A stretch of 64,000 bases of DNA. Origin: a virus (taxonomy: Duplodnaviria; Heunggongvirae; Uroviricota; Caudoviricetes). Positions 13,367 through 57,954 of the stretch are shown in pieces. How positions within the stretch are numbered: position 1 is the first letter of the stretch; the number at the start of each line of letters is the position of its first letter. The position numbers and the translations under genes are program-made. Location: positions 1 through 64,000 of the IMG/VR virus record IMGVR_UViG_3300015608_002795; one strand, 5' to 3'. The notes beneath the pieces are model-generated. The model was not told the DNA's origin and made no database searches. It worked only from the letters and a program-made list of their open reading frames with translations.

Positions 13367-13614
13367 ATAAAAAAGTAAAAATAGTAAGAGGTAAGTCTCC
13401 TTATATAGCAGATGCTAAAAGCGTTTTAAGTGTTAGGTCTACTTATGATTCTGTGGATTTAAAATTTACCTTTAATTGTGAAAATAGAAAATTATCCATT
13501 ATAGATGAATATAGAAGAAGTCAAGATTATCTATATGGTAAAGAATATCGTGTAGAATACATGGTAGATTTACAATTAGTTAGAGAAGAACAAATTAAAA
13601 AATTATTAAAATGA
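13363..13614 (+). CDS. hypothetical protein (83 aa)
   Basis: coupled ORF. Confidence 0.4.
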   Translation: MNKKVKIVRGKSPYIADAKSVLSVRSTYDSVDLKFTFNCENRKLSIIDEYRRSQDYLYGKEYRVEYMVDLQLVREEQIKKLLK

Positions 13615-14270
13615 AAAGCTATCCTAAAATAGAACATTATAACAAAGGTCCATTTGGCCTGAACTGCTATGCCTTCTATAAGTACGATGGATCTAATTTC
13701 CGAGCAGAATGGAGTAGGAAAAGGGGTTGGTATAAATATGGAACAAGAAATGTAATGGTTGATAAAAACACCCCTATGTTTGGAGATGCAATTGATATAT
13801 TTCTTAATAAATATGGAGAAGATTTAGATGATGTTTTTAGAAAAGAGTACAAAAGGGTTGATAGCTTTGTTGTATTTGGTGAATTTTTTGGTGAACATTC
13901 ATTCGCCGGAAAACATGTAGATGAAGATAAAAAAGATATCATTCTTTTTGATGTAAATCAATTCAAAAGAGGTTTTTTACCTCCTACTGAATTCATTGAT
14001 AATTTTGGGCATTTAGATATACCAAAAATCGTATATAAAGGCATTTACGACGAAGAATTAGTTGATAGAGTTAAATCTAATCAACTTAGTTTAGAAGAAG
14101 GAGTTATCTGCAAAGGCACCATTAAAACAAAATCAGAAGGTGAAGTTGTATGGATGACAAAAATTAAAACAATAGAATGGGTCAATAAAGTTAAATTATT
14201 ATATGGTGAAAAAGCTTTATTGGAAGAATTTAATAACGATTCTAAAATACTGAATGAATATGAATACTAA
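13611..14270 (+). CDS. nucleotidyltransferase (ligase)-like protein, KxDG motif 'KYDGSN'
   Basis: covalent-NMP-ligase motif I near the N-terminus; paired with the downstream ligase-like ORF. Confidence 0.55.
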   Translation: MKSYPKIEHYNKGPFGLNCYAFYKYDGSNFRAEWSRKRGWYKYGTRNVMVDKNTPMFGDAIDIFLNKYGEDLDDVFRKEYKRVDSFVVFGEFFGEHSFAGKHVDEDKKDIILFDVNQFKRGFLPPTEFIDNFGHLDIPKIVYKGIYDEELVDRVKSNQLSLEEGVICKGTIKTKSEGEVVWMTKIKTIEWVNKVKLLYGEKALLEEFNNDSKILNEYEY

Positions 14271-14973
14271 GAAAAGAATATTTAATTTAAGAGGAATAGC
14301 ACCAGACTATCCGAGAATACCTCATTTGGATAAAAATATATCTAAAATGACACATGATGATATTCTCTCTGATAATGCTATTGTCTATCCGATCGAAGGA
14401 TATGTTCAAGAAAAAATAGACGGAGCAAATTTAGGAGTGTCTTGGTATAAAAATGGTCCTATTGTTAGAAATAGAAGTAACATTTTAAAGAAAGGTTATT
14501 CGAAAATTCATACACCATCCAAAGAGCAATTTAAATCTACCTGGAATTGGGTACATGACAATAGAAAAGACATTCAACTTATTTCAGAAATAGTAATGTC
14601 TGAAATAACAATCTATGGAGAATGGATGGTTGCACAGCACTCAATTGCATATAACGGGTTGCCTGATTGGTTTATCGCATATGATATTTGGGTTGTTGAG
14701 GATAATAAGTTTTTATCTCCGGCTAAAGTAGATGAATTATTATCCAAAACTGATATATCTTATATCAAACCATACAAAGCAACTTTAAATAGTGTTTCTG
14801 ATGTTATTAGATGGGCTGAAATGAGGTCTGACTATACAAATGGCGTCAGAGAAGGTATAGTAATTAAGACCGTAGAAGGTGATTTTGTAAAAGATACTTA
14901 CAAAGTGGTAAATAAACACTTTGATAGAAGAGAGAATTTTAATGATAAATTAATTAAAAATAAATTAAAATAA
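14254..14973 (+). CDS. RNA ligase-like protein, motif I 'KIDGANLGV'
   Basis: KxDGxN lysine-adenylylation motif; size and context fit phage Rnl-type enzymes. Confidence 0.6.
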   Translation: MNMNTKKRIFNLRGIAPDYPRIPHLDKNISKMTHDDILSDNAIVYPIEGYVQEKIDGANLGVSWYKNGPIVRNRSNILKKGYSKIHTPSKEQFKSTWNWVHDNRKDIQLISEIVMSEITIYGEWMVAQHSIAYNGLPDWFIAYDIWVVEDNKFLSPAKVDELLSKTDISYIKPYKATLNSVSDVIRWAEMRSDYTNGVREGIVIKTVEGDFVKDTYKVVNKHFDRRENFNDKLIKNKLK

Positions 14974-15056
14974 AAAGAGTCAATAAAACTCGTATATTTG
15001 TAATATAGTGTCCGATATCTACAAGTGAAGAATTAGAATTATAAATTAATTAAAAA

Positions 15057-15419
15057 ATGATAAAGAACTTACAAGGAAAAGAATTAGAACAATTTAAAGA
15101 TAACTTTAAAATTATAAGTTATTGGGCACCAACCATATTCACATCACCAATAGACAATCAAAAATATGCCATTGCAATAGGATCCCCTTGGATTCCTATT
15201 CCACATGCAATGACTCTACAAGAGGTAAGTGAAAGGTGGATTAAAAAAGAACTTAAGAAACCAGAAATCATTCAAAGAGTTCCTTCTAAAAGAGGAAAAG
15301 GAAAATACACGGTGACCTTTGATAAATCTTGGAAGTGTACTTGTTCTGGATATAAATTCAAAAGAAATTGTAGTCATATTGATGATGTAAAATCAAAACT
15401 AAAACTCAAATTGAAATAA
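15057..15419 (+). CDS. SWIM zinc-finger protein
   Basis: 'WKCTCSGYKFKRNCSHIDDV' CxC..CxH SWIM signature. Confidence 0.5.
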   Translation: MIKNLQGKELEQFKDNFKIISYWAPTIFTSPIDNQKYAIAIGSPWIPIPHAMTLQEVSERWIKKELKKPEIIQRVPSKRGKGKYTVTFDKSWKCTCSGYKFKRNCSHIDDVKSKLKLKLK

Positions 15420-15420
15420 A

Positions 15421-15909
15421 ATGCATTGTGTAAATTTAATACTAATTAGAAAAGCCGAATTAAGGAATTCGAAAATTTCATCTATAATTGATGGTGGTGA
15501 TTTTCCAAAATCAGATATTCCATATATAATTTTACCACAAGATATTATAGCATTTCCAACTCTGGAAAAAGCAGACGTGTGTAAAAATTTTGGTGGTGGA
15601 GTCACCTTCATAGCAATTAATACTGACTATTTTGGCTTATCCAACAGGTATGGACCTGGCGATCAGTCTGCTAGTTTAAATGAAACCATTATCTATGGTG
15701 ATAATTTTCATTATAAGACAATTAAAGTAAATCACGAGTTTAATGCTATTGATAAAATTTTATCAGAATATGGTGTTATTCGGGAAAATGGACAAGATGA
15801 ATTTGATTCGATACATTTAGGTAGGTATAGAAGTAATGAAGAATATATTAAAAAATATAAAAAAATAAAACTCATTAATCAAATCCTTGTTACAACTCCA
15901 AAGTTCTAA
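15421..15909 (+). CDS. hypothetical protein (162 aa)
   Basis: intact ORF. Confidence 0.45.
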   Translation: MHCVNLILIRKAELRNSKISSIIDGGDFPKSDIPYIILPQDIIAFPTLEKADVCKNFGGGVTFIAINTDYFGLSNRYGPGDQSASLNETIIYGDNFHYKTIKVNHEFNAIDKILSEYGVIRENGQDEFDSIHLGRYRSNEEYIKKYKKIKLINQILVTTPKF

Positions 15910-16376
15910 CCAATGTGAATAGTAATATCTTGTGGTGCTGGTTTATTTCCACCAAAAAATGGTCTAAGTAAATATTGAAAAAGCTTTTTATTGGAATGGT
16001 CAATTGAAACTGTAATATTATTTACGGTGAATTGATAATTACTATCGCCAATCTCTATAGTATAATTATAGATTTCATTAATATTGACAGATGTTATAAA
16101 CTCCACAGTACGAATAGACTTTACATAACAATAGGCATATACATCTACTCGATCTTTTTGATTATTGTATACCCATCCAAATCTAATACTATCAGCCCAT
16201 ATATGGGGTAACCATCCAATTCCTACTAATTTATTTATATCATAATTATCATCGTCTTTAAAATCATATTTACAGGAATCATCAAATTTAATAGGCCATG
16301 TAAATAATCTTTTACCAAACCAAAGTTTGATTTTTAGCTGTGAGTAGTGATTTCCCTTTTTAATTTTAAATATCAT
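15906..16376 (-). CDS. hypothetical protein (156 aa)
   Basis: minus-strand block. Confidence 0.5.
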   Translation of the reverse strand: MIFKIKKGNHYSQLKIKLWFGKRLFTWPIKFDDSCKYDFKDDDNYDINKLVGIGWLPHIWADSIRFGWVYNNQKDRVDVYAYCYVKSIRTVEFITSVNINEIYNYTIEIGDSNYQFTVNNITVSIDHSNKKLFQYLLRPFFGGNKPAPQDITIHIG

Positions 16377-16378
16377 AA

Positions 16379-16999
16379 CTATTTTAAATATTGTCTTATA
16401 TTATATCCAAGTCTCTCTTCGAGAGAGCCAATTGTTTCGTCAGTTACAGTAGCTTCTGATTCACTATTCTCAAACCAAAGACAATATATAATTACTTTTT
16501 TTGATAGTGAATAGACCACTTTCCAACAATGCTCTGGAACATATACTCCATTTCCTATTGTTTTATTATATTGATTTCCACCACCAATTATTAACAGTGA
16601 ATCATTTTGTGATACTTTTCTTATAATAAATTCGTACATTTTCCAGACTCCCCGATTTAAATTTTGTGTTTGTGGTATTACATTATAAAATCTAAAAGTA
16701 GATTCTGCTGATTCACAATCAAGTGCAAAATCTTCAAAATTAGCAATGTGTCCTTGATCATACCCTGACTTATAATAGTCATCTGAGGTTGCTGATGATT
16801 TAAGACCCCCTGTTTTAAAAGACATGCCTTTTCTACTACAAGGGCCGCCTCCTTTATAAAGTTTATAAGACACATATATAGGTTGTTTCAGTTCATAATT
16901 GTAATAAGATTTGTAAATACCAGCGTTTATGACTGTATCGATTTTTTGTGCGTAACAAAAAGCAGGAATTAATAGGAATAAAAATATAATATATTTCAT
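16379..16999 (-). CDS. secreted DNA/RNA non-specific endonuclease (signal peptide, 'GYDQGHI' motif)
   Basis: N-terminus 'MKYIIFLFLLIPAFCYAQ' is signal-peptide-like; 'SGYDQGHIANFEDF' matches the Serratia-nuclease DRGH active-site motif. Confidence 0.65.
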   Translation of the reverse strand: MKYIIFLFLLIPAFCYAQKIDTVINAGIYKSYYNYELKQPIYVSYKLYKGGGPCSRKGMSFKTGGLKSSATSDDYYKSGYDQGHIANFEDFALDCESAESTFRFYNVIPQTQNLNRGVWKMYEFIIRKVSQNDSLLIIGGGNQYNKTIGNGVYVPEHCWKVVYSLSKKVIIYCLWFENSESEATVTDETIGSLEERLGYNIRQYLK

Positions 17000-17003
17000 T
17001 AAC

Positions 17004-17363
17004 TTAGTTTATTTTCATGTCTGTAACTATTTGTATTTTAATTCCTAATTTACTACCCTCGATTTCCATATCGGACCATTTTGTTTCGGAGTAATTAATA
17101 TTTTGGTTATCAAATGATACCGGTTGAGGACCATTCATTCGACGATACCTTTCTTCTTGTATTCTTCTTTGTTCTGTTTCTTGATTTCTAATCATATCTT
17201 CAAAAGATTGTGGATTTTGATAAGGGTTTGGGGTAGGTGAAGGAGTATGGTTTTGTTTGTACCCATATTTTGCTAATAGATAATCCGCCTCTGATTGATC
17301 AATATCAGGATTTGCGGAAGTAACTTGTTGATTGTCTATTATTCTAACTTCTGGTCTTTGCAT
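17004..17363 (-). CDS. hypothetical protein (119 aa), Pro/Gln-rich
   Basis: intact ORF. Confidence 0.45.
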   Translation of the reverse strand: MQRPEVRIIDNQQVTSANPDIDQSEADYLLAKYGYKQNHTPSPTPNPYQNPQSFEDMIRNQETEQRRIQEERYRRMNGPQPVSFDNQNINYSETKWSDMEIEGSKLGIKIQIVTDMKIN

Positions 17364-17365
17364 AT

Positions 17366-17698
17366 TTAATTTTTACATTTTTTAATAATACTAGAAACGG
17401 CAGATTTTATCTTGCCTAATTCTGTATATTTAAATTCATCTACAAATTTTTCACCTTTTGCTTTTACACCAACATAATCATTACGAAACATAACTTGAGC
17501 AACTACATCACCACGAAATAAAATTTCTAAATCGTTGCCAACTTCCTTGGTTTCTAATCTTTGTGATTTAACATGATTTTTAATTTGAATTTTAAAATCA
17601 ACCTTTTTATCAGCATCCCATACTTTCTTAGGATATAATTTTTTGGTGTCTTTGAAGGTCTTTCCTTCAAAAAGTTTAAAATTTATAATGTGTTTCAT
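17366..17698 (-). CDS. hypothetical protein (110 aa)
   Basis: intact ORF. Confidence 0.45.
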   Translation of the reverse strand: MKHIINFKLFEGKTFKDTKKLYPKKVWDADKKVDFKIQIKNHVKSQRLETKEVGNDLEILFRGDVVAQVMFRNDYVGVKAKGEKFVDEFKYTELGKIKSAVSSIIKKCKN

Positions 17699-17777
17699 AA
17701 TCTACTTTTATATTTTAAGTATATATTAAAATAATTTTTATTTATATATGGGAGTGAAACGGAATAATATATAATAT

Positions 17778-18497
17778 ATGAACAATAAAAGAAAATTGAA
17801 TAAGATTTTAATCTTTGCAAAAAAATTGCGTGGAATAAATATATTGGGTGGATCCTGTAAAAGATGTGGCGAGACAAACATACATAAATTATGCTTTCAT
17901 CATATAAACCCAGAAGAAAAGGAAGACACATTTAATAATTTAAAATATAATAGATGGACAATTATTAAAAATGAAATTGATAAGTGTGAGGTGTTGTGCC
18001 ATAACTGTCATACTGAACTGCACTATCTTGATAAATCAGCGAGGTATTCAAAAAAAGAAAAAAATAAACATATCTATCTGGAATATAAAGGTATAGATAA
18101 ATGTGAAATTTGTGGATATAAATCTTGTATAGATTCTCTACAATTTCATCATCTGTTAAATAAAAAAATAGAATTTAGAAACATCCAAACCACTTTTAAT
18201 TCAATTATAGATTTGACAAATAATATAAGGGAAGAATTAGATGTTTGTAAGGTTATTTGTAATAATTGCCATGTAGAACTACACACAGACACTATTTTTT
18301 TTAACAACAATCTTAGAATAATTATTGATAAGTCAATCAATATGAGAGAAAATTCAAAAAGCATAGATGAAGATAAAGTTAAAGAAATGATGAATAATAA
18401 TTTAAGTATAAAAGAAATGATGAGTATTTTAAGTTGTAAAAAAAGTGCAATTTATGATTGTGTCAAAAAAATAAGAAAAGATAAAACAAAGGAATAA
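17778..18497 (+). CDS. HNH endonuclease with duplicated HNH Zn-finger modules
   Basis: 'CKRCGETNIHKLCFHHINP..CHNCHTELH' and 'CEICGYKSC..HHLLNK..CNNCHVELH'. Confidence 0.75.
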   Translation: MNNKRKLNKILIFAKKLRGINILGGSCKRCGETNIHKLCFHHINPEEKEDTFNNLKYNRWTIIKNEIDKCEVLCHNCHTELHYLDKSARYSKKEKNKHIYLEYKGIDKCEICGYKSCIDSLQFHHLLNKKIEFRNIQTTFNSIIDLTNNIREELDVCKVICNNCHVELHTDTIFFNNNLRIIIDKSINMRENSKSIDEDKVKEMMNNNLSIKEMMSILSCKKSAIYDCVKKIRKDKTKE

Positions 18498-18521
18498 TTT
18501 TTTTATATATACATTTACATT

Positions 18522-18594
<73 letters not shown>

Positions 18595-18606
18595 CAAAAA
18601 ATTAAA

Positions 18607-18638
18607 TTTGGTGAACAAAAAGATACTTCGTATCTTTG
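18607..18638 (+). promoter_or_regulatory. Bacteroidetes-type promoter (TTTGGTG..CGTATCTTTGTA)
   Basis: drives a 30-codon mini-ORF (18657-18749) and the downstream tRNA cluster; hairpin terminator at 18771-18804. Confidence 0.5.
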
Positions 18639-18813
18639 TATTCAAATATTAAAGAAATGAACAAGAATTTAGAAATATCAGTTACTATCTCTTATGAGGG
18701 ATATTATTATGAGGAGGAAACTCGCTCAGTAGGACTGGCATTTCTATAATGAAGATAGAAGATGTTTTAAAAAGCCGGTTCCTACAAAGAATCGGCTTTT
18801 TTTATGCGAATTT

Positions 18814-18896
18814 GGGTAGGTATGCAAGTGGTTAAAGCAAACGGTCTGTAAAACCGTCCTCTTCGGAGTTCGTGGGTTCAACTCCCACCTTACCCA
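18814..18896 (+). tRNA. tRNA-Tyr (GUA), class II
   Basis: acceptor GGGTAGG/CTTACCC; anticodon stem ACGGT/ACCGT with loop CTGTAAA; long variable arm; T-arm GTGGG-TTCAACT-CCCAC. Confidence 0.65.
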
Positions 18897-18902
18897 CACT
18901 TG

Positions 18903-18980
18903 GGAGTATAACGCCAGCGGCACGTAAGCCGCCCCTAATCAAACAGGCGTACGGACGGTAAGTATGGTTCAAATCCTGCT
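18903..18980 (+). tRNA. tRNA-like element, non-canonical fold (acceptor GGGAGTA/TACTCCC, internal GCGGC/GCCGC hairpin, T-loop-like GGTTCAAATCC)
   Basis: terminal stems and a T-loop motif present but no cloverleaf fits; possible pseudo-tRNA. Confidence 0.25.
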
Positions 18981-18992
18981 ACTCCCACAAAT

Positions 18993-19063
18993 GGTCTTGT
19001 CGGCTAATGGTAGGCTTCGTGGTTTTCACCCACGAGACGCGGGTTCGAATCCCGTCGAGACTA
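18993..19063 (+). tRNA. tRNA-Glu (UUC)
   Basis: acceptor GGTCTTG/CGAGACT; anticodon stem CGTGG/CCACG with loop TTTTCAC; T-arm GCGGG-TTCGAAT-CCCGT. Confidence 0.6.
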
Positions 19064-19068
19064 CAAAT

Positions 19069-19140
19069 GGTCCCGTCGTCTAATGGTTAGGACGTATCCC
19101 TTTCACGGATAAAATGCGAGTTCGATTCTCGTCGGGACTA
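19069..19140 (+). tRNA. tRNA-Glu (UUC), paralogue
   Basis: acceptor GGTCCCG/CGGGACT; anticodon stem TATCC/GGATA with loop CTTTCAC; T-arm GCGAG-TTCGATT-CTCGT. Confidence 0.6.
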
Positions 19141-19152
19141 CAAAGATTAAAT

Positions 19153-19228
19153 GCTGCCGTCGACTAGTGGTTTATGTCGCAAGACTTTCAATCTTGTGAG
19201 CCGAAGGGCTCTCGCGGGTTCGAATCCC
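19153..19228 (+). tRNA. tRNA, class-II architecture (variable arm GAGCC/GGCTC), anticodon loop CTTTCAA (UUC), A73, 3-bp D-stem
   Basis: acceptor GCTGCCG/CGGCAGT; anticodon stem CAAGA/TCTTG perfect; T-arm GCGGG-TTCGAAT-CCCGT. Confidence 0.55.
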
Positions 19229-19412
19229 GTCGGCAGTACAAAAGTAGTTATCAAAATATCCATTCGGTCAATGGTGACAGGCAATAGACCCTGATACTCC
19301 ATAATGAACGAGTAAAGCTACCTCAAAAGACGTTTTGAGACGCATCGCTTCCGATAGATAACTCACAAGTACTATTATATCATCCATTATGGGGTTTTGG
19401 GTACTTAAATTG

Positions 19413-19504
19413 GGTGGCGTTGCTACATCAGGTCTGTAAAACCTGTCTGCGTTAACAAAATGGTAGCTGGTCTGCAGTTTAGAGGTTCGATTCCTTCGTC
19501 ACCC
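19413..19504 (+). tRNA. tRNA-like, class-II length, GUA-type anticodon hairpin (CAGGT-CTGTAAA-ACCTG), irregular D region
   Basis: acceptor GGGTGGC/GTCACCC; T-arm AGAGG-TTCGATT-CCTTC; about 35 nt between anticodon and T stems. Confidence 0.3.
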
Positions 19505-19508
19505 ACAT

Positions 19509-19590
19509 GGATTGTTAGCAAAGCGGCAAAGTCGGGTGGCTGTAACCCACCTCCCTTCGGGGTCCGTAGGTTCGAGTCCTACACAATCCA
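19509..19590 (+). tRNA. tRNA-Tyr (GUA), class II
   Basis: acceptor GGATTGT/ACAATCC perfect; anticodon stem GGTGG/CCACC with loop CTGTAAC; T-arm GTAGG-TTCGAGT-CCTAC. Confidence 0.6.
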
Positions 19591-19595
19591 CAAAT

Positions 19596-19678
19596 TGGTA
19601 GATGGGCGAGTGGTTAATGCCGACAGTCTGTAAAACTGTTCTCCTTGGAGTTCGGGGGTTCAAATCCCTCTCTACCAA
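19596..19678 (+). tRNA. tRNA-Tyr (GUA), class II, T1:A72
   Basis: acceptor TGGTAGA/TCTACCA; anticodon stem ACAGT/ACTGT with loop CTGTAAA; T-arm GGGGG-TTCAAAT-CCCTC. Confidence 0.6.
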
Positions 19679-19744
19679 CCATACGTTGAAAAACAGCAGA
19701 TTTTTGGTCCGCAATGTTTAATATATAAAATAAAAATATTATAT

Positions 19745-20160
19745 ATGAAACAAAATCACAAGGATAAAATTTCTGATGATATTATTCTAAACTACTATAA
19801 AAATAATAAAACTTTACATGAATCTGCTTCTGAATTATCAATGACTGTTGTAAGTCTATGGAGGAGAGCTAAAAAGTTAAACATAAAATGGTCTGATAAA
19901 AAAAGACCAGCTCATAATAGAATTACTCTACAATAGACGGAAAAAAGCCTGATTATCAAACATTTAAATTAAAAAACCGTTTAATATCTGAAGGAATAAA
20001 AGAAAATAAGTGTGAAGTGTGTGGAATATTTGAGTGGAACAGCAGACCACTAATAATGCAATTAGATCACATAGATGGTAATTCACATAATCACTTACTA
20101 GAGAATTTAAGACTAATTTGTCCAAATTGTCACGCTCAAAGCGAAACATATTGTGGTAAA
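19745..20160 (+). pseudogene. HNH endonuclease split between two frames (HTH ORF 19745-19936, HNH domain 19921-20160)
   Basis: N-terminal HTH ORF ends ITLQ*; the +2 frame continues as '..CEVCGIFEWNSRPLIMQLDHIDGNSHNHLLENLRLICPNCHAQ', homologous to the intact HNH gene at 34131. Confidence 0.55.
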
Positions 20161-20210
20161 AATAAATAAAGTCAATTTTTTTTGTTATATTTACATGAAA
20201 AGTAAATAAA

Positions 20211-20939
20211 ATGGCAACATTCGAACAAAAAGATGTTATAGATACACTAATTGGATTTAAACACTACATTAAAAATACATCATTTTTAGGTGGCAAAGAT
20301 GTTATTAAACAAATATGCACGACTAAAGAATTAAATGACACTCTCGTTTACATTTTTAATCCTGATAAAATCACTTCTATATATAACTCTGATATTGAAA
20401 AATTCAATCGTATAAAATTTGAAAATATTGAAGAGTTTACAAATGAAACATACTTCAATAAAAAATTCCTCTATATAAAAGAATGTAACTATAATCTTAA
20501 AAAAATTGATTGTATATTCACACTAATGGATATAGAACCAAATTTTAGGAACTTATATCACACCTACTATAAACTAAAACATCTAGTATGGAATAGCACC
20601 GATGATATCAAAGATAATTTGATAGAATTTAGTGATGAAGCATACCGATATAATATATCATTGGTATCAATATCCGAACCAGTTGAACATACAGCTTGGA
20701 AAATTGTTGTCAAACAAGATAGAACAGATATTACCTTTCATACTCATATAATTAACACAATTAATCAAATCTCCAAAAGAGTAAATGGATATTGCTCAAT
20801 GAAAATATCTGATAATGCTTACGTATTCTATATACATCATATTAACTCAGATACAATTGCTCCTAATTGGAAATTCAAAAATCTATCACAACCCATATCC
20901 GACTGTATACCTGATTGGTATTATGATGGTGATAAATAA
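20211..20939 (+). CDS. hypothetical protein (242 aa)
   Basis: intact ORF. Confidence 0.5.
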   Translation: MATFEQKDVIDTLIGFKHYIKNTSFLGGKDVIKQICTTKELNDTLVYIFNPDKITSIYNSDIEKFNRIKFENIEEFTNETYFNKKFLYIKECNYNLKKIDCIFTLMDIEPNFRNLYHTYYKLKHLVWNSTDDIKDNLIEFSDEAYRYNISLVSISEPVEHTAWKIVVKQDRTDITFHTHIINTINQISKRVNGYCSMKISDNAYVFYIHHINSDTIAPNWKFKNLSQPISDCIPDWYYDGDK

Positions 20940-20965
20940 TTATAGTATATTTTAATATATACATT

Positions 20966-21442
20966 ATGAAATATTTATCATCATTTAAAATTTTTGAAGG
21001 AAAAAAGGTCACTTGTAAATGTGGTTGGGAATGGAATTTAGAAGAAGGAGGCAAAGATCCATACACCTGTCACAAATGTGGTAAGGTTAATGAGAAAATG
21101 AAGTGGACTAAATTTTTTAAAATTCTATCTTTTAAATATAGTTTTTTTGAAAATGATTATCGAATAATTACAGAAAAGGATCCAGAATTTAATGATTGTA
21201 TCTATGATTGCATTCTTTCAAAATATGAAAAAGATATAGTAGAAATCTATTCAGTAAAAAGGTTATCAGATGGTGAAATATTTACAGTAGGTGATCAACT
21301 ATTACTCGGTGGTGAAGATTATGTAAAAATTGATAAAATTTGGCCGTCATTTGATCAAATGAGAGCAGATAGTGGTAGACTAGGTTTGGCATTAAATAAT
21401 AAATTCCTTACCGTGTGGCATTTCAGCCGTAAAAAAAAATAA
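20966..21442 (+). CDS. hypothetical protein with zinc ribbon (CKCG..CHKCG)
   Basis: 'VTCKCGWEWNLEEGGKDPYTCHKCGKVN'. Confidence 0.5.
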   Translation: MKYLSSFKIFEGKKVTCKCGWEWNLEEGGKDPYTCHKCGKVNEKMKWTKFFKILSFKYSFFENDYRIITEKDPEFNDCIYDCILSKYEKDIVEIYSVKRLSDGEIFTVGDQLLLGGEDYVKIDKIWPSFDQMRADSGRLGLALNNKFLTVWHFSRKKK

Positions 21443-21481
21443 ACAAAAAGGGAAAATAAAAATATAATATATACATTTAAA

Positions 21482-21513
21482 TTTGGTGGTATAAAAAATC
21501 CACCGTATATTTG
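21482..21513 (+). promoter_or_regulatory. Bacteroidetes-type promoter (TTTGGTGG..CGTATATTTGTAA)
   Basis: precedes a non-coding stretch ending in twin terminator hairpins. Confidence 0.5.
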
Positions 21514-21626
21514 TAAAATAAAATTAAAATAAAATGAAACAGATACATAACATATCAGCGAAAATAGGGGGCGGCGCCGGAGCGTCTGTCAGTGGCTGAG
21601 CTATGTTATGATTTAAGATAATATAA

Positions 21627-21686
21627 AACCCAGTCACAAAAATGACTGGGATTTTTTTTACCCAGTCACCAAATGACTGGGTTTTT
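21627..21686 (+). terminator. tandem pair of near-identical terminator hairpins (CCCAGTCA..TGACTGGG, twice)
   Basis: 'AACCCAGTCACAAAAATGACTGGGATTTTTTTT' immediately followed by 'ACCCAGTCACCAAATGACTGGGTTTTT'. Confidence 0.55.
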
Positions 21687-21767
21687 CGATTTCGGCGGGT
21701 ATCGAGCCAAGCTTATACCTTGGATATTCGTAGCGGGAAATGGAAGACGTGGGTTCGAATCCCACCC
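21682..21767 (+). tRNA. tRNA (candidate UAU anticodon hairpin CCAAG-CTTATAC-CTTGG); D region irregular
   Basis: acceptor CGGCGGG/CCCGCCG perfect; T-arm GTGGG-TTCGAAT-CCCAC. Confidence 0.4.
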
Positions 21768-21791
21768 CGCCGACAAAAATAATTTTTAGAA

Positions 21792-22277
21792 ATGAAAATT
21801 TGCACAAATTGTAATAAAGAGAAAAGTGTTAGTGAATTTTATTTTAAAAAGAATAGGAATTCTTATGAATCATCTTGTAAAAAATGTAGACAATTATCAG
21901 TTAAAAATTATTTAGAAAAAAATAACAATCTTAAAAAAATATTTTATACAAGAGTAAGAAATATTTTAAAAAGATCTAATGTAGTAGATATCGATTTAAG
22001 AAACTATCTAATACAATTATGGGAGGAACAAGAAGGAAAATGTTACTATACTGGTATTAAAATGTCTCTAAAGGGATATAGTAAAAATGAAAAAACAGCT
22101 ATGACTGTAGATAGAATTGATCCAAATGGTGGATATACTAGAGGTAATATAGTTCTATGTTGTTCAATTGTTAATAAAATTAAACAAAACTTATCAATTA
22201 ATGAATTATTAGAATGGTGTAATTTAATAAAAATATCAAGCGAGTATCGTATAATGGAAGCGAAAGCTATATTATAG
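21792..22277 (+). CDS. HNH endonuclease
   Basis: 'CTNCNKEKS..SCKKCR' Zn ribbon; 'GKCYYTGIKM..VDRIDPNGGYTRGNIVLCCSIVNKIK' HNH core. Confidence 0.7.
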   Translation: MKICTNCNKEKSVSEFYFKKNRNSYESSCKKCRQLSVKNYLEKNNNLKKIFYTRVRNILKRSNVVDIDLRNYLIQLWEEQEGKCYYTGIKMSLKGYSKNEKTAMTVDRIDPNGGYTRGNIVLCCSIVNKIKQNLSINELLEWCNLIKISSEYRIMEAKAIL

Positions 22278-22339
22278 GTGCCTTCCAAGCATCGGATGTC
22301 GGTTCGATTCCGACTATTCGCTCAAAAAATAAAGTAAAA

Positions 22340-22546
22340 ATGAGTATTTACGCAACAAATTTTATCATAGATGAAGAGACAGGAGAAGCAAAACTTGTTA
22401 AACATCTAAATAAAAAAAGAATTGATCGATGCACGGCTTCAATACCACCAGGTGGCTGGAATAAAAAAGGATCAAAACAAAAAGAAAAAAAATTTTGGAA
22501 TAGAGGCAAAACAAAAGATTTAACAAATTACTCAAAGAATTGTTAA
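22340..22546 (+). CDS. hypothetical small protein (68 aa)
   Basis: intact ORF. Confidence 0.3.
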   Translation: MSIYATNFIIDEETGEAKLVKHLNKKRIDRCTASIPPGGWNKKGSKQKEKKFWNRGKTKDLTNYSKNC

Positions 22547-22695
22547 ATAAAATTGACTAAAATATGGGGGTTGGGACTGCAGCAGGAGTGGTCACTTGAC
22601 TTGCAATCAAGAAATCAGATGGTATCGTCCACCATAACCTCCACCATAGGGTCTGAGGGAGTCCCTTAAACGGATAAATAACGTGTCCCTCTCCA

Positions 22696-22769
22696 GCGGG
22701 TGACGCATAAATGATGGTGCACCAGATTGCCATTCTGGAACAGAGCCGGTTTGATCCCGGTCACCCGCA
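22696..22769 (+). tRNA. tRNA-Gly (GCC)
   Basis: acceptor GCGGGTG/CACCCGC perfect; anticodon stem CCAGA/TCTGG with loop TTGCCAT; T-arm GCCGG-TTTGATC-CCGGT. Confidence 0.65.
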
Positions 22770-22818
22770 CAACCGAAAATAGGGAAACGCTCATAATTAA
22801 TATATAAAAATAAAAATT

Positions 22819-23463
22819 ATGAGATGGTCCCAATTAGAAGTAGAAAATATTATAGAATTAATTAAATGTGGAAAAAGCTATAAAGAAATATCAAGTATTG
22901 TAAATAGAACAGAGTCTAGTATAAGAAACAAAGCAAATGAAATTCAAATTATAACTTCACAATATTATCAAGTTAAAATTGTTAATAAATCTTGCTTAGA
23001 GTGTTCTTCAACTTTTGATTCTTTAGAGTATGAAAATAGAAAATTTTGCTCAAAATCTTGTAGCATAAAACACAATAATAGGTTAAGAAAAAAAAGTAAA
23101 TTTTGTTATAATTGTAAAAATATTTTATCAATAAGACAAAAAAAATTTTGTTGTAGGGAATGTAATAATTCATACAACAAGAATAAAATTTTTGAAAGAA
23201 TATCAAATGGCGACACATCAATATACTTTCAACAATATAAAAAATATTTAATTGAAAAATATGGTGAAAAATGTATGAAATGTGGATGGTCTGAAAGAAA
23301 TCCAATAACAAAAAAAGTTCCTATACAAATGGAACATATAGATGGAAATTCAGAAAATAACAGTATAGAAAATTTAGAATTATTATGTCCAAATTGTCAC
23401 TCATTAACACCAACATTTGGGGCCTTAAATAAAGGCAGAGGAAGAAAAAATAGAAAAAGATAA
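22819..23463 (+). CDS. HNH homing endonuclease (N-terminal HTH, Cys-rich middle, C-terminal HNH)
   Basis: 'MEHIDGNSENNSIENLELLCPNCHSLTPTFG'; paralogue of 32586-33254. Confidence 0.8.
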   Translation: MRWSQLEVENIIELIKCGKSYKEISSIVNRTESSIRNKANEIQIITSQYYQVKIVNKSCLECSSTFDSLEYENRKFCSKSCSIKHNNRLRKKSKFCYNCKNILSIRQKKFCCRECNNSYNKNKIFERISNGDTSIYFQQYKKYLIEKYGEKCMKCGWSERNPITKKVPIQMEHIDGNSENNSIENLELLCPNCHSLTPTFGALNKGRGRKNRKR

Positions 23464-23544
23464 ACCAGGAGAGTAAATCCTATACTGAGAATGTTCCGGG
23501 TGTGGTTGCCTAGTTCGATGGTGTAAGTGTAGGGATCTCCATTT

Positions 23545-23610
23545 GGGGGATTAGCTCAGTTGGCTAGAGCACCTGCCTTGGGTCATCGGTTCGAATCCGA
23601 TATCCTCCAC
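23545..23610 (+). tRNA. truncated tRNA-Pro(UGG)-like gene (3' half of anticodon stem and variable loop missing)
   Basis: GGGGGAT-TA-GCTC-AGTTGGCTA-GAGC-A-CCTGC-CTTGGGT then directly T-arm CATCGG-TTCGAAT-CCGAT and ATCCTCC; 63 nt instead of about 73. Confidence 0.4.
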
Positions 23611-24486
23611 TATGAAAGGAGAAATCATGCGGGACGCATAAACGTCACAGAGGAGTATAAATCTTTCTGTGACTCAAAAGGAATCAAATTCCAAATGGAT
23701 GATAATGTAAAATCCTATGATGATACAACACTATTTTGTCCAGCTGGAATGCAACAGTTTAAGTCTAAGTTTAAAGACTTAAGCTACAAAGGAACAATAT
23801 CAAATATTCAATCTTGTTTAAGGTTGAATGATATAGAAGAAATTGGTGACGGAACACATTTACTCTACTTTAACATGATTGGACTTTTTTCATTCAGAGA
23901 GTTGAGTCTATCAGAAACAATTGATTTTTGGATAGAATTTTTAAATAAAATAGGAATAATTCCTGACTATGTAACAATCCATCCTAATAAATTAAATTGG
24001 GGAGAGTGGTATAAAAAACATAATGTAGAAATAAGAATAGACGAGGAATGTAAATGGACAGATGGTGAAATAGGTGGTTACTGTACTGAGTTTTATAAGA
24101 ATGGTATTGAAATAGGAAATATTGTAAATACCATGGATAATTGTATAGATGTTGGATTTGGATTGGAAAGAATTGAAATGGTATTAAATGGTAAAGGAAA
24201 ATCTAAAGAGGAAACCCTTACACAAACAATACTTAAAATAATTGAAAGTGGATTTAAGCCAACATACAATAAACAAGGTTCTTTATTGCGTAGGTTATTG
24301 AGGATATGTTATTTACAAAATATTGAAATTAATCATCAATATTATTTGGATGAAATAAAAAGGCAGGAAAGGATATTAGAAAAGTGGAATAGGTTAAAGG
24401 ATAAGCATAAAGACAAGTCAAAAGATTGGTGGTGGAATACACATGGAATTGACATAAATCAAATAGAAGATGGAGACATTATATAA
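23560..24486 (+). CDS. alanyl-tRNA synthetase catalytic (aminoacylation) domain only, ~300 aa; start codon unclear
   Basis: 'TTLFCPAGMQQFK', 'RLNDIEEIGDGTHLLYFNMIGLFSF', 'DGEIGGYCTEFY' and 'IDVGFGLERIEMVL' align with AlaRS motifs; no editing or C-Ala domain; the only in-frame ATG lies inside the truncated tRNA. Confidence 0.65.
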   Translation: MARAPALGHRFESDILHYERRNHAGRINVTEEYKSFCDSKGIKFQMDDNVKSYDDTTLFCPAGMQQFKSKFKDLSYKGTISNIQSCLRLNDIEEIGDGTHLLYFNMIGLFSFRELSLSETIDFWIEFLNKIGIIPDYVTIHPNKLNWGEWYKKHNVEIRIDEECKWTDGEIGGYCTEFYKNGIEIGNIVNTMDNCIDVGFGLERIEMVLNGKGKSKEETLTQTILKIIESGFKPTYNKQGSLLRRLLRICYLQNIEINHQYYLDEIKRQERILEKWNRLKDKHKDKSKDWWWNTHGIDINQIEDGDII

Positions 24487-25190: not shown

Positions 25191-25191
25191 T

Positions 25192-46659: not shown

Positions 46660-46663
46660 AAAT

Positions 46664-46734: not shown

Positions 46735-46741
46735 CAAATAT

Positions 46742-46812
46742 TTTAGGGTCATCTAACGGCAGGATGGGAAGCTTTGAACTTTCAAATGCTGGTTCGAATC
46801 CAGCCCCTAAAA
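46742..46812 (+). tRNA. tRNA-Gln (UUG), T1:A72
   Basis: acceptor TTTAGGG/CCCTAAA perfect; anticodon stem GGAAG/CTTTC with loop CTTTGAA; T-arm GCTGG-TTCGAAT-CCAGC. Confidence 0.55.
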
Positions 46813-46817
46813 CACAT

Positions 46818-46899
46818 TGAGATGTAGCGTAATGGTAACGCATCCGCCTTTGAAGCGGTGGAAGAAATTCCCCTGTAGGTTCGACCCCTACCATCTCAA
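46818..46899 (+). tRNA. tRNA with UUG (Gln) anticodon and 15-nt variable arm (GGAA/TTCC)
   Basis: acceptor TGAGATG/CATCTCA perfect; D-arm GCG-TAATGGTAA-CGC; loop CTTTGAA; T-arm GTAGG-TTCGACC-CCTAC. Confidence 0.5.
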
Positions 46900-46902
46900 C
46901 AT

Positions 46903-46976
46903 TGCTCTATTGTATATGGGTTTGATTACGTCTGTCTTTGAAGCAGAAGAGCTTGGTTCGAGTCCAAGTGGAGCAA
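46903..46976 (+). tRNA. tRNA-Gln (UUG)
   Basis: acceptor TGCTCTA/TGGAGCA; anticodon stem TCTGT/GCAGA with loop CTTTGAA; T-arm CTTGG-TTCGAGT-CCAAG. Confidence 0.55.
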
Positions 46977-46982
46977 CTAAAT

Positions 46983-47055
46983 TGACTTGTCGTATAACGG
47001 TTAATTACACTCGCCTCTGAAGCGAAAAATATTGGTTCGAGTCCAATCAAGTTAA
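46983..47055 (+). tRNA. tRNA-Gln (CUG)
   Basis: acceptor TGACTTG/CAAGTTA; D-stem GTA/TAC; anticodon stem CTCGC/GCGAA with loop CTCTGAA; T-arm ATTGG-TTCGAGT-CCAAT. Confidence 0.6.
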
Positions 47056-47065
47056 CATTTTAGTT

Positions 47066-50957: not shown

Positions 50958-51307
50958 AGGAATTACTGGAATATATGAGAGAGGAACTTAAAGATGATCT
51001 GTTTTCTAAGAAATTTTTCGTATCTTTGGTTAAGAATGTTATATTCTATAATGTAAAAAAAGATAAAATATATTCTTTTAAAAAATTATCAGTATTGGGA
51101 TTTTCGATATTAATATCTCAATATAGAACCAAAGAATTTTTCAAAGATGATGATAAATATGATTATATGAGGTTTTTTAAACTAAATTCTAAAGAACTAG
51201 ATTCGGATTCAGTGAAGGGATTTATTATTTTGAAAAATAATATCGAAAATTTAGAATATATAAAGAGTATATCAAGAGATAACAAATTAAAAAAGATAAT
51301 AGAATGA
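50939..51307 (+). CDS. hypothetical protein (about 122 aa from the ATG at 50939)
   Basis: track ORF 50906 overlaps the methyltransferase end; internal ATG chosen. Confidence 0.4.
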   Translation: MEENDLKELLEYMREELKDDLFSKKFFVSLVKNVIFYNVKKDKIYSFKKLSVLGFSILISQYRTKEFFKDDDKYDYMRFFKLNSKELDSDSVKGFIILKNNIENLEYIKSISRDNKLKKIIE

Positions 51308-51795
51308 ATGTAAATAAATTAAAAGAACCTTATGTCCTAATTTTAATTGGACCTCCATTGGTTGGTAAAACAACATGGATAAAAAAGAATTTTGCTAATA
51401 AGGATGTAAAACTAATAAGTCGAGATCAGATAGTTTTAGATGTATATGGTAGTGATGATTATGACGAAGCATTCAAAAATGTTGATCAGAAAAGGGTTAA
51501 TAATGTATTAGAATCAACACTATTAAAAGCCTCGGATAATGGTGAGAATGTTATTGTGGATATGACAAACTTAACTTCTAAAAGAAGAAAACACACACTA
51601 AGTTATTTTGATGATAACTACAGTAAGATTGCGGTTATTTTTCCACCTGTTGATTGGGATGAGATTCAAAAAAGAAATGAAAAAAGGAAAAAAGAAGAAA
51701 ACAAAAATATTCCTGAACACGTATTAAAAACTATGTTATCTTCTTATCAACCAGTTTCACATGAAGAAGGATTCGATAAAGTTGTTTCATTATGA
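51304..51795 (+). CDS. P-loop kinase (polynucleotide-kinase-like kinase domain)
   Basis: Walker A 'LILIGPPLVGKTTWIKK' at the N-terminus and a Walker-B-like 'VIVDMTN'; 163 aa. Confidence 0.6.
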   Translation: MNVNKLKEPYVLILIGPPLVGKTTWIKKNFANKDVKLISRDQIVLDVYGSDDYDEAFKNVDQKRVNNVLESTLLKASDNGENVIVDMTNLTSKRRKHTLSYFDDNYSKIAVIFPPVDWDEIQKRNEKRKKEENKNIPEHVLKTMLSSYQPVSHEEGFDKVVSL

Positions 51796-52322: not shown

Positions 52323-52940
52323 ATGACTAAGTATGATAAGATGAAAATTTCTCTACGTTATTGGTTATTGGGAATGGCTCAATCAAATCCTGATTATCTG
52401 AAATGTGTTGAGGCTTTAGAATTCGCATCTAAGTTTCATACCGGAAAACGTAAGGATGGTGTAACAAACGAATTTGAGCACCAATTAACAATTACACATT
52501 ACATCAGAAGTCTTATTAACAACTTGGAATATCCATCTGAAACAATTTGTGTTTCATTATTACATGATGTTCCAGAAGATTATGACGTTTCGTTTGATGA
52601 ACTTACTCAAAAATTTGGACCTATTGTAAGTGGATCTACTGAAAAATTAACTAAGTTTTATAGAGGAGTAAAGAAGACTAACGAGGTTTATTTTAGTGGA
52701 ATTGCATCTGACCCAATTGCCTCAATTGGAAAAGGTGGTGATAGGATTCATAATTTACAATCAATTGTTGGAGTTTTTACCAAAACAAAACAAGAGGAAT
52801 ATGTTAAAGAAGCCGAAGATTGGATTTTACCATCATTAAAAGAAGCAAGAAGATTATTTCCTAAACAAGAACTCGCTTATGAAAATATAAAACTTATGAT
52901 GAAATCACAAATAGAATTAATAAAATATACTTGGAATTAA
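52323..52940 (+). CDS. HD-domain phosphohydrolase
   Basis: 'EHQLTITHYIR..LLHDVPEDYD' His..HD..D metal-binding pattern (SpoT/MazG-like HD). Confidence 0.6.
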   Translation: MTKYDKMKISLRYWLLGMAQSNPDYLKCVEALEFASKFHTGKRKDGVTNEFEHQLTITHYIRSLINNLEYPSETICVSLLHDVPEDYDVSFDELTQKFGPIVSGSTEKLTKFYRGVKKTNEVYFSGIASDPIASIGKGGDRIHNLQSIVGVFTKTKQEEYVKEAEDWILPSLKEARRLFPKQELAYENIKLMMKSQIELIKYTWN

Positions 52941-56922: not shown

Positions 56923-57069
56923 TCAAATCCCTTATATTAAAGGTAAATATAAACAATTGAATATCAATAAAATTATAAACAAATCAAGCCCTGCTTGAAA
57001 AAAATCTTAAATTTTTTAAAACCTTTGATTTTTCAAGCATATAATACTTAAACAATAAAAACAAATATT

Positions 57070-57345
57070 ATGAACAAATCAGATTTAATTAATCAAGTAG
57101 CATCATCCACTGGCCTAACAAAAACTAAAGCTGGTGAAGTTATTGACTCTATCACAGAATCAATGAAAACAGCATTATCTAATGGTGATAAAGTAACTCT
57201 TGTTGGATTCGGATCATTTTCCGCATCAAAGCGTAAAGCTCGCAAGGGTCGTAATCCAAAAACAGGTCAAGTTATTTCTATCCCTGAAAAAGTGGTTGTT
57301 AAGTTTAAATCAGGTTCTTACTTATCCGAATCTGTAAATGCTTAA
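57070..57345 (+). CDS. hup: HU/IHF-family DNA-binding protein
   Basis: 'MNKSDLINQVA..GLTKTKAGEVID..VTLVGFGSFSASKRKARKGRNPKTGQVISIPEKVVVKFKSG' HU fold with beta-arm RNP motif; 91 aa. Confidence 0.85.
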   Translation: MNKSDLINQVASSTGLTKTKAGEVIDSITESMKTALSNGDKVTLVGFGSFSASKRKARKGRNPKTGQVISIPEKVVVKFKSGSYLSESVNA

Positions 57346-57365
57346 TTTTTCTTAGAAAACTATAA

Positions 57366-57403
57366 AAAAGTCGGTTAATTTTATTTTTAACCGACTTTTT
57401 TAT
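57366..57403 (+). terminator. intrinsic terminator
   Basis: AAAAGTCGGTTAA..TTAACCGACTTTTTTA after the HU-like gene stop. Confidence 0.6.
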
Positions 57404-57447
57404 TTAAGTATCAATTTAATTACTTAATTTTGTAAAAACATCTAAGA

Positions 57448-57954
57448 ATGAAATTAGAAATAGAAAAAAAATTCTTGCTAAAAGCGTTGCCTAATAAAAA
57501 ATATGATGATAAGTATTTAATTGACCAATATTATTGGAAAAATAAAAGTAATATATGGGAAAGAGCAAGAACATATCATTCTGAAATAAGCGGAGATAGT
57601 TATATACATACAATTAAAAAATCTGTCTCCAAAAGTGTAAATATCGAAGATGAGAAAGAACTTACAAAAGATGAATTTGAGATATTTAGAAATAAATGTA
57701 TTAGGGATCCAAATTCTAGATTTATATCTAAGGAACGATACATATATAAATATGGAGATCTAAAATGGGAGGTTGATAATTTTGATAATGGATATAGACT
57801 AATAGTTGCTGAAATAGAAATTCCTAAGAAGAGCTATCGAGTAGTTATACCAGATTATATTTCAGATGTCTTACTCATGGAAGTAACTGGTTTGAAACAA
57901 TTCAGTAATAGGAATTTATCTATTGCTATGAAAGAAGTTAATAAAATACAATAA
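57448..57954 (+). CDS. CYTH-domain (triphosphate tunnel metalloenzyme) protein
   Basis: N-terminal 'MKLEIEKKFLLKALP' is the CYTH 'ExExK' signature; acidic strands downstream. Confidence 0.55.
   Translation: MKLEIEKKFLLKALPNKKYDDKYLIDQYYWKNKSNIWERARTYHSEISGDSYIHTIKKSVSKSVNIEDEKELTKDEFEIFRNKCIRDPNSRFISKERYIYKYGDLKWEVDNFDNGYRLIVAEIEIPKKSYRVVIPDYISDVLLMEVTGLKQFSNRNLSIAMKEVNKIQ

Follow-up and report, generated by a model that had tools for sequence, protein, structure and literature searches.

The 64,000 nucleotides analysed here (positions 1 to 64,000 of the IMG/VR virus record IMGVR_UViG_3300015608_002795, assigned to the Caudoviricetes), hereafter called the window, contain seven genes that an earlier reading, made from the sequence alone, had gathered into a dispersed but complete RNA-repair toolkit. 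All on the + strand, these are three genes for ligase-like proteins (ligase 1 at 13611..14270, ligase 2 at 14254..14973 and ligase 3 at 35047..35658) and the genes for a P-loop kinase (51304..51795), a calcineurin-type metallophosphoesterase (26650..27333), an HD hydrolase (52323..52940) and a CYTH protein (57448..57954). The seven open reading frames (ORFs) are present at or near the positions that this sequence-only reading gave them, and six of its family guesses hold; the pathway that it assembled from them does not. The genes are dispersed in every relative too.

The source of the window is a megaphage of the Mahaphage clade. Judged by its proteins, it is closest to the uncultured megaphages LR756502 (642 kb), LR745206 (635 kb), LR756511 and LR756504, with about 55-65% identity, whereas a search at the DNA level against deposited phages returned no near-identical relative, tRNA genes being the sole matches. 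Genomes larger than 634 kb were assigned by Al-Shayeb et al. 2020 to the Mahaphage clade, with Bacteroidetes as predicted hosts, and ligases go unmentioned in that work (PMC7162821). The window has a G+C content of 30% and carries almost every gene on the + strand. According to ARAGORN, Rfam and the gene map, a tRNA island extends over 2653..47056 (+ strand) and comprises 47 tRNA-like genes, of which 41 were found by ARAGORN and 6 by Rfam only; the more than 50 tRNAs counted in the sequence-only reading are thus too many. Interleaved with the tRNAs are ORFs that by eye resemble HNH, GIY-YIG or NUMOD homing endonucleases, the one at 12644-13366 being the only one with Pfam confirmation (NUMOD). 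The island encloses all three ligase genes, whereas those for the kinase and the HD and CYTH proteins come shortly after its end.

Three minimal ligases and a stand-alone kinase

The three ligases all pass the gathering threshold (27 bits) of the Pfam family RNA_ligase (PF09414), ligase 1 with 35.9 bits (E = 1e-8), ligase 2 with 97.1 bits (E = 2e-27) and ligase 3 with 47.5 bits (E = 3e-12). Because their mutual identity is only about 21-25%, they are best understood as old separate lineages and not as recent duplicates. Each consists of a bare nucleotidyltransferase (NTase) domain of about 200-240 amino acids (aa), and in all three families motifs I (KxDG), III, IIIa, IV and V are conserved across the alignments of relatives, so that the enzymes are apparently catalytically intact. 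Searches of the PDB with the single sequences of the ligases and of the CYTH protein gave no matches, and family profiles or structure models were needed.

Ligase 1 (219 aa, motif I K24-YDG) is an Rnl2-like NTase domain only. No solved relative of its family could be detected by sequence, and a structure model was therefore required. The AlphaFold2 (AF2) model has a predicted local distance difference test (pLDDT) score of 93.5, and its best Foldseek matches are T4 Rnl2 (E = 2.6e-8) and trypanosome REL1 (TbREL1), with 2hvr, 1s68 and 1xdn as top entries; the ligase of CthPnkp ranks 32nd (E = 0.028). Among 22 relatives, K24, D26, G27, E91, F113, D114, E163, G164, K184 and K186 are invariant. The protein ends 33 residues past motif V, in three short helices, and the C-terminal domain of Rnl2 is absent. 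Members of this family are also held by Lak megaphages and XacN1.

Ligase 2 (239 aa, motif I K54-IDG) has an Rnl5-like NTase domain. Its family profile matches the Rnl5 prototype NgrRnl, a Naegleria RNA ligase (E = 2e-3), and Foldseek ranks its AF2 model (pLDDT 85) with NgrRnl first (E = 1e-7), followed by Rnl3, Trl1, Rnl2 and Rnl1, with DNA ligases lower. The conserved residues are K54, D56, G57, E/D123, D144, E200, G201 and K217, with E at motif III in 19 sequences and D in 3. The N-terminal domain of Rnl5 is absent. In its place stands a short conserved motif (PDYPRIPHL..S..THDD), and residues 1-46 are modeled at low to moderate pLDDT with only one short helix and no predicted folded domain. 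The JGI pipeline calls many ligase 2 homologs 'atypical dual specificity phosphatase' although PF09414 is their sole domain, a label that is probably a propagated mis-annotation.

Ligase 3 (203 aa, motif I K21-IDG) is again an Rnl2-like NTase-only protein, and it matches phrog_548 at 115 bits. Its family, commonly annotated 'RNA ligase', has members of about 45-60% identity in no fewer than 131 contigs of IMG/VR and in 89 phages of GenBank, including Caulobacter giant phages, mycobacteriophages and Streptomyces phages. The only significant solved matches of the family profile are the T4 Rnl2 entries 1s68 and 2hvq (E ~1e-3), with motifs I and III aligned. K21, D23, G24, E93, E175, G176 and K189 are invariant, and the protein stops 14 residues after K189, again without the Rnl2 C-terminal domain. 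Across the 80 viral loci of this family that were compared, no linkage to a kinase or a phosphatase was found. Its commonest neighbour there had been guessed by eye to be RuvC-like, for which Pfam gave no confirmation.

The sequence-only reading had likened the KxDG proteins to Rnl1- and Rnl2-type ligases. Their assignment to RNA ligases is borne out by PF09414 and by solved RNA ligases as best matches, whereas an Rnl1 type is not: none of the three matches PF09511 (RNA_lig_T4_1), and Rnl1 structures rank below those of Rnl2 and Rnl5. Nor does any of them match PF16542, the family of the Pnkp-type (Rnl4) ligases. mRNA-capping enzymes, the identity that would have undone the sequence-only reading, are absent from the top 50 structural matches of ligases 1 and 2, in which DNA ligases take lower ranks. 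The three proteins therefore match Rnl2 and Rnl5 at the level of the active site but lack the domain architecture that defines either family.

In the window, the gene for ligase 2 begins within that for ligase 1, with 17 nt shared. The two genes also overlap in locus L081 and in L090 (the 630-kb contig ERZ4201038 NODE_2); they are adjacent in inverted order in LR745206, and are separated by 0.9 kb in LR756502, by 1 kb in L092 and by 11 kb in LR756511. In L091 and in a 354-kb contig they do not lie within 10 kb of each other. Ligase 1 has 447 homolog clusters and ligase 2 has 309, and these lists have 24 longest-contig sizes in common, 9 of which are smaller than 7 kb, which serves as a proxy for frequent adjacency of the two genes. 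Arrays of tRNA genes are located no more than 10 kb from the pair in 6 of the 7 genomes for which DNA was at hand, and the small flanking genes are syntenic. Further RNA-repair genes that occur close by in relatives are, in L090, a gene for a CCA-adding enzyme (PolyA_pol, 2585-4646), which is broken up by an ORF for a NUMOD-type homing endonuclease and lies 6 kb upstream of the pair, and a third PF09414-like ligase (13699-14346); in the 354-kb contig, an Rnl1 and cREC pair; and in L092, a HAD hydrolase. As the linkage to tRNA arrays and to other tRNA-repair genes is kept in relatives, the pair is probably tied to tRNA biology. Its translational coupling, together with its retention by tRNA arrays across the clade, suggests that ligases 1 and 2 cooperate or act on related substrates.

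Directly 3' of ligase 2 lies an ORF of 120 aa (15057..15419, + strand) without a Pfam match, in which a CxC..CxH motif can be seen by eye. Homologs of it follow ligase 2 in LR756502 (L088) and L090 as well; none was detected in L091 or L092.

The 163-aa kinase (51304..51795) stands alone, without a phosphatase module, and is best interpreted as a 5'-OH polynucleotide kinase of the Pnk type. It matches Pfam AAA_33 at 85 bits, and its best PDB matches are Capnocytophaga Pnkp1 (4xrp), T4 Pnk (1ltq) and the kinase domain of Clostridium thermocellum CthPnkp (4gp7). It is a homolog of polynucleotide kinases and not a dNMP kinase, the identity that would have told against the sequence-only reading. 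Weaker matches are to models of bacterial Pnkp and PSTK and to phrog_505, a polynucleotide kinase. K22, T23, D41, R95 and R128 are conserved, and Walker A occupies residues 16-23 (GPPLVGKT); the sequence-only reading was right about a stand-alone P-loop kinase and had put Walker A at residue 7. Relatives of the kinase occur beside repair genes in other phages. In XacN1 (AP018399 103018-106092, L086), the ortholog shares 32% identity; after it come Hen1, which has a methyltransferase domain in addition to Hen1_N (200 bits), and then a PNKP_ligase protein, the three (ORF199, ORF198 and ORF197) forming a split Pnkp/Hen1 cassette. In Ruegeria phage RpAliso, the gene for a 163-aa kinase overlaps that of an Rnl1-type ligase, and in Bacillus phage Thrax5, a kinase-HD fusion comes after an Rnl1-type ligase. 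The XacN1 record labels the three cassette genes 'predicted kinase', 'methyltransferase' and 'metallophosphoesterase', the last of which is wrong.

Genes related to NAD and ADP-ribose surround the kinase in the window (44583-45116, 49697-50260 and 56158-56922), a set that consists of a cytidylyltransferase-like (NMNAT-like) protein, a Nudix hydrolase and a microbial-type PARG/macro protein; the kinase relatives in RpAliso likewise adjoin NAD-salvage genes. Two paralogs with 36% identity, 50250-50957 and 55479-56195, flank a block of kinase, HD, DHFR and glycosyltransferase genes. The latter matches Pfam methyltransferase families, and the former, without a Pfam match, is methyltransferase-like by eye only. 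As a candidate for Hen1, 50250-50957 was rejected: it has neither similarity to XacN1 Hen1 nor a Hen1_N domain, and it is the paralog of 55479-56195.

The phosphoesterase remnant and the HD and CYTH proteins

The phosphoesterase gene (26650..27333, + strand), which the sequence-only reading had placed at 26659-27333, belongs to the calcineurin type as claimed and is truncated at its 5' end, as seen from phrog_1649 and from the alignment with orthologs. The codon at 26659 is GTT, which is not a start; the first in-frame start is the ATG at 26752, which sits past motif II and just before GNHD. The match to phrog_1649 covers positions 70-261 of 308. Full-length orthologs from megaphages (L082 and L083; 259 and 242 aa) start M..LYLGDIHG...AYIIQVGDFGVG, and the window protein is 43% identical to them from IIQVGDFGIG on, keeping GNHD, THTAP and GHFH. 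Some 32 N-terminal residues, motif I (GDIHG) among them, are missing from it, with unrelated sequence instead. Of the metal-binding motif set (DxH, GDxxDR, GNHD/E, H and GH), motifs II-V are thus in frame and motif I is absent. In the calcineurin-type phosphoesterase superfamily, motif I provides essential metal ligands, and since this motif is missing, the gene is most likely a remnant without activity. That the remainder of the reading frame is open suggests a recent disruption.

Immediately upstream of the break lie an ORF with HNH-like Cys/His motifs, recognised by eye (25845..26564, + strand), and a tRNA-Gly gene (25649-25724). A split gene was considered and rejected in favor of truncation, as the window holds no N-terminal exon and no intron. 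A tblastn search of the window with the N-termini of both megaphage orthologs (E up to 100) found no missing exon; a regular-expression search for GDxHG-like sequences found only an unrelated GDIHG inside a glycosyltransferase gene at 55306; and Rfam gave neither a group I nor a group II intron, whether with the gathering threshold or with E <= 1 as the limit. None of the curated families of RNA-repair phosphoesterases is matched by the intact orthologs, which are located hundreds of kb away from the ligases.

The HD protein (52323..52940, + strand, 205 aa) is an HD hydrolase, as had been proposed, and is of the RelA/SpoT (RSH) type. It matches HD_4 (PF13328) at 36 bits and the spoT_relA model TIGR00691, and its PDB matches are the hydrolase domains of SpoT and Rel, small alarmone hydrolases (SAHs) and Mesh1. 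The signatures HDxxED and DRxHN can be read from the sequence (LLHDVPED and GGDRIHNL). By these features, it is predicted to be an RSH-type SAH and not a generic RNA-end phosphoesterase, a member of a family that is spread through jumbo phages. As a 2',3'-phosphoesterase partner of the kinase it was rejected, for it is RSH-type and has no similarity to the HD domain fused to Pnk in Thrax5. It probably degrades (p)ppGpp or (p)ppApp, and 'HD-alarmone PDEases' were listed among counter-signalling enzymes by Iyer, Anantharaman, Krishnan, Burroughs & Aravind 2021 (PMC7824862). One phage SAH reportedly strips the pyrophosphate that toxSAS toxins set on the CCA ends of tRNAs (PMC11245113). Because such a reversal has been reported, the HD protein could conceivably remove toxSAS pyrophosphate from tRNA 3' ends, a tRNA-related role by a chemistry unlike the one first proposed for it.

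The CYTH protein (57448..57954, + strand, 168 aa) begins with an ExExK motif (LEIEKKF). By itself it has no Pfam match, and its family assignment stands at the profile level: the family profile matches the tunnel enzymes 2FBL and 3TYP from end to end (E = 2.9e-14), and of 30 relatives, 11 match Pfam CYTH (PF01928). The invariant residues are the paired charged residues E4, E6, R39, R41, K57, E67, K95, E108, E122 and E124. Its gene lies 4-6 kb downstream of the kinase, a position that is kept in LR756502 and LR745206. On this profile evidence, it is predicted to be a true triphosphate-tunnel metalloenzyme, closest to the inorganic triphosphatases, and would thus be a phosphohydrolase of the tripolyphosphate/NTP type. 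The sequence-only reading had made it an enzyme of RNA end-processing, for which this resemblance does not speak. The substrates known for characterised relatives of the 2FBL and 3TYP type are tripolyphosphate or NTPs, not RNA ends. The clearing of nucleotide pools is the role that has been assigned to CYTH and MazG enzymes of phages (PMC7824862).

The island and its surroundings have further features. tRNAs for Lys, Glu, Asn, Cys, Val, Thr, Asp and Gln have copies with long type-II-like variable arms (83-91 nt), at 2653-2743, 2751-2839, 19153-19239, 31532-31619, 32271-32358, 32363-32449, 32457-32542, 46362-46446 and 46818-46900, each adjoining a normal-length copy of the same anticodon class; long-arm copies of tRNA-Lys are also present in LR745206, LR756502 and L092. 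Long variable arms are unusual outside the tRNAs for Leu, Ser and Tyr, and these copies may be nuclease-evading or decoy tRNAs. For two tRNA-like genes, 33379-33452 and 46157-46230, ARAGORN returns a 2-nt 'anticodon' marked as undetermined; the former also scores 56 bits in Rfam and has a similar gene in LR756502 (L089 11102-11175). ORF fragments resembling aminoacyl-tRNA synthetases occur at 23560-25190 and 37589-38758, namely a piece of the AlaRS N-terminal type (PF01411), part of a class II core (PF00587) with an 84-aa ORF after it, and a weakly class I-like protein; an Rfam tRNA match (23545-23609) overlaps the start of the first of them. The - strand ORF 16379-16999 encodes a signal-peptide-bearing DNA/RNA non-specific endonuclease (PF01223), and 27343-29274 is a 643-aa ORF with a signal peptide that by eye only resembles a TonB-dependent outer-membrane receptor.

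Repair capacity and rival explanations

Pfam scans for healing enzymes took in about 47 ORFs of the window, and among these neither HAD, 2H, cREC, RtcB, RlaP, a CCA-adding enzyme nor Hen1 was found. As there is neither an intact 3'-end-healing enzyme nor Hen1, there is no complete heal-and-seal pathway within the window, and the phosphoesterase, HD and CYTH genes stand outside the repair of RNA breaks. What we consider the best explanation, with moderate confidence, is a partial capacity for RNA-break repair that would be made up of three intact minimal RNA-ligase homologs and a Pnk-type kinase. Families, folds and motifs, the truncated phosphoesterase and the gene orders are shown directly by the analysis; as regards substrates, specificity for tRNA and cooperation between the genes, we infer the following course. 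The kinase would turn 5'-OH ends left by host RNases into 5'-phosphate; each ligase would self-adenylylate on its motif I lysine, pass the AMP to the 5'-phosphate and then join the break to the 3'-OH. The most plausible sites of sealing would be nicks in RNA that is structured or double-stranded, tRNA for example, and the healing of 2',3'-cyclic-phosphate or 3'-phosphate ends would be supplied from elsewhere in the genome or by the host. Alternatively, the ligases would act on 3'-OH/5'-P breaks that require no healing.

Several observations weigh against such a partial repair capacity. An intact 3'-end-healing enzyme was not found in the scanned ORFs, and the window covers only about 10% of a presumed genome of about 0.6 Mb. 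The kinase presumably lacks an equivalent of T4 Pnk R38. Kinase and ligases do not always occur together: in LR756511, which encodes ligases 1 and 2, no ortholog of the kinase was detected, and LR756504 encodes the kinase and lacks both of these ligases. For ligase 3, tRNAs are present in just 13 of the 80 loci, and a frequent neighbour is a dATP/dGTP diphosphohydrolase. The isolated NTase domain of Rnl2 or Rnl5 carries out step 3 only, adenylylation, full nick sealing or both needing the appendage that is missing here (PMC4408790). Because Rnl2 and Rnl5 need this extra domain, the minimal ligases may be incompetent alone or dependent on partner proteins.

One such partner might be the neighbouring ligase itself. 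Ligases 1 and 2 would then form a two-subunit RNA ligase that reseals phage or host tRNAs, possibly together with the 15057-15419 protein, and each bare NTase module may supply the substrate-binding surface that is otherwise given by the extra domains of Rnl2 and Rnl5. We regard this arrangement as rather unlikely; we know of no description of a heteromeric ATP-dependent RNA ligase.

The same bare domains could also be read as covalent NTases other than ligases (capping-like enzymes, or enzymes that AMPylate proteins or RNA) or as inactive binding modules. The KxDG proteins do lack the accessory domains that characterised Rnl2 and Rnl5 use for steps 1 and 2, and the ligase 1 family has no solved relative detectable by sequence, but all five ligase motifs are invariant, IV and V included, and the Pfam scores and structural rankings given above, with no capping enzyme near the top, argue for ligases; this identity is very improbable. 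A main role in DNA transactions is a more serious rival, though still a doubtful one: the ligases would seal RNA 3'-OH/DNA nicks in replication, in repair or after damage by homing endonucleases. Rnl2 and Rnl5 need RNA in the 3'-OH strand only, and a role in RNA-patched DNA repair has been proposed for them (PMC4408790); DraRnl has a radiation phenotype (PMC5397189). Ligase 3 homologs of smaller phages stand among nucleotide-metabolism genes, such as those for ThyX and for the diphosphohydrolase, and the scarcity of tRNAs at ligase 3 loci points the same way. Distant relatives of ligase 2 in Staphylococcus phages carry the label 'DNA ligase', and the region is dense in ORFs that by eye resemble homing endonucleases, of which NUMOD alone has been confirmed, as noted. 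On the other side, RNA ligases head the structural matches, DNA ligases come clearly after them and an OB domain is absent, and in relatives the pair of ligases 1 and 2 is anchored by tRNA arrays, with CCA-adding, Rnl1 or cREC genes in the vicinity. A DNA-side role, such as the sealing of RNA-OH/pDNA nicks, may apply especially to ligase 3.

It is improbable that the seven genes constitute a dispersed but complete Pnkp/Hen1-like pathway of tRNA healing and sealing, which was the model of the sequence-only reading. In its favor, the XacN1 ortholog of the kinase belongs to a split Pnkp/Hen1 cassette, LR745206 and LR756502 combine intact phosphoesterase orthologs with ligases 1 and 2 and the kinase, and calcineurin-like and HD phosphatases have been proposed as RNA-end healers in a few jumbo phages (PMC7824862). 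Against this stand the phosphoesterase of the window, with its lost motif I and a first start codon past motif II, and the intact orthologs, remote from the ligases and outside the RNA-repair families; the failure to find Hen1 in the scanned ORFs; ligases that are not of the PNKP_ligase (Rnl4) type; an RSH-type HD protein; and a CYTH protein closest to inorganic triphosphatases. The Pnkp/Hen1 domain set is thus not reconstituted here. What survives of the tRNA healing-and-sealing idea is that the ligase pair tracks tRNA arrays and that relatives of the kinase sit in repair cassettes; a full pathway in the window does not. To speak of a complete toolkit is to overreach when one part is most likely dead and two probably serve alarmone signalling and nucleotide or polyphosphate hydrolysis.

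Comparison with known systems

A gene set of this sort has already been described for jumbo phages. Iyer et al. 2021 described tRNA provisioning in jumbo phages with combinations of Rnl1, Rnl2 and RtcB ligases, among them XacN1 with three Rnl2 paralogs, which were read as specialisation; polynucleotide kinases are congruent with the ligases, and calcineurin or HD phosphatases occur occasionally (PMC7824862). Like those sets, the window combines a large tRNA complement with several non-redundant Rnl-family ligases and a polynucleotide kinase, and HD-alarmone PDEases and CYTH triphosphatases are put in separate counter-defence and nucleotide roles there (PMC7824862). It differs in that HAD-PNK, cRec, RlaP, RtcB and a CCA-adding enzyme are not in the window, that its phosphoesterase is a remnant, and that the Mahaphage-clade tandem of ligases 1 and 2 is undescribed there. 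This tandem of two domain-minimal ligases by tRNA arrays is the sole element that we have not found described in the literature.

Compared with T4 Rnl2 and REL1, ligases 1 and 3 have the NTase fold and motifs I, III, IIIa, IV and V in common, whereas they lack the C-terminal domain, are only about 19-20% identical and end about 15-35 residues past motif V. The NTase domain of ligase 2 finds its best match in the Rnl5 enzymes NgrRnl and DraRnl, and neither they nor ligase 2 have a C-terminal appendage. Rnl5 is defined, however, by an N-terminal domain that is needed for adenylylation and nick sealing (PMC4408790), and in ligase 2 the NTase core is preceded by no more than about 46 residues, the motif I lysine being K54 as against K170 in NgrRnl.

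With T4 Pnk and Rnl1, which counter PrrC, and with Pnkp/Hen1, the window shares homologous kinase modules and a scheme in which phosphorylation of the 5'-OH precedes ATP-dependent sealing. In contrast to T4 Pnk and Pnkp, the kinase of the window is stand-alone, with no HAD or metallophosphoesterase domain, and in contrast to both systems, the window has no Rnl1 or Rnl4 ligase, no Hen1 and no intact 3'-phosphatase. The HD protein bears the RSH hydrolase signature of the SAHs (PaSpo of phage SSU5, Pseudomonas SAH and Mesh1) and matches structures of SAH, SpoT and Mesh1; a toxSAS partner is not present with it. The CYTH protein keeps the ExExK motif and the paired Arg/Lys/Glu tunnel residues of NeuTTM (2FBL) and CthTTM (3TYP).

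Megaphages have the largest known tRNA complements among viruses, and the way in which they shield translation from tRNA-cleaving host defences is suggested by gene content only. The conserved tandem of minimal ligases offers a concrete target for biochemistry, and an abundant ligase pair linked to tRNA genes could help to clarify the physiological roles of Rnl2 and Rnl5 ligases. With the window, the Mahaphage clade joins the jumbo phages that carry several non-redundant RNA ligases together with a Pnk-type kinase.

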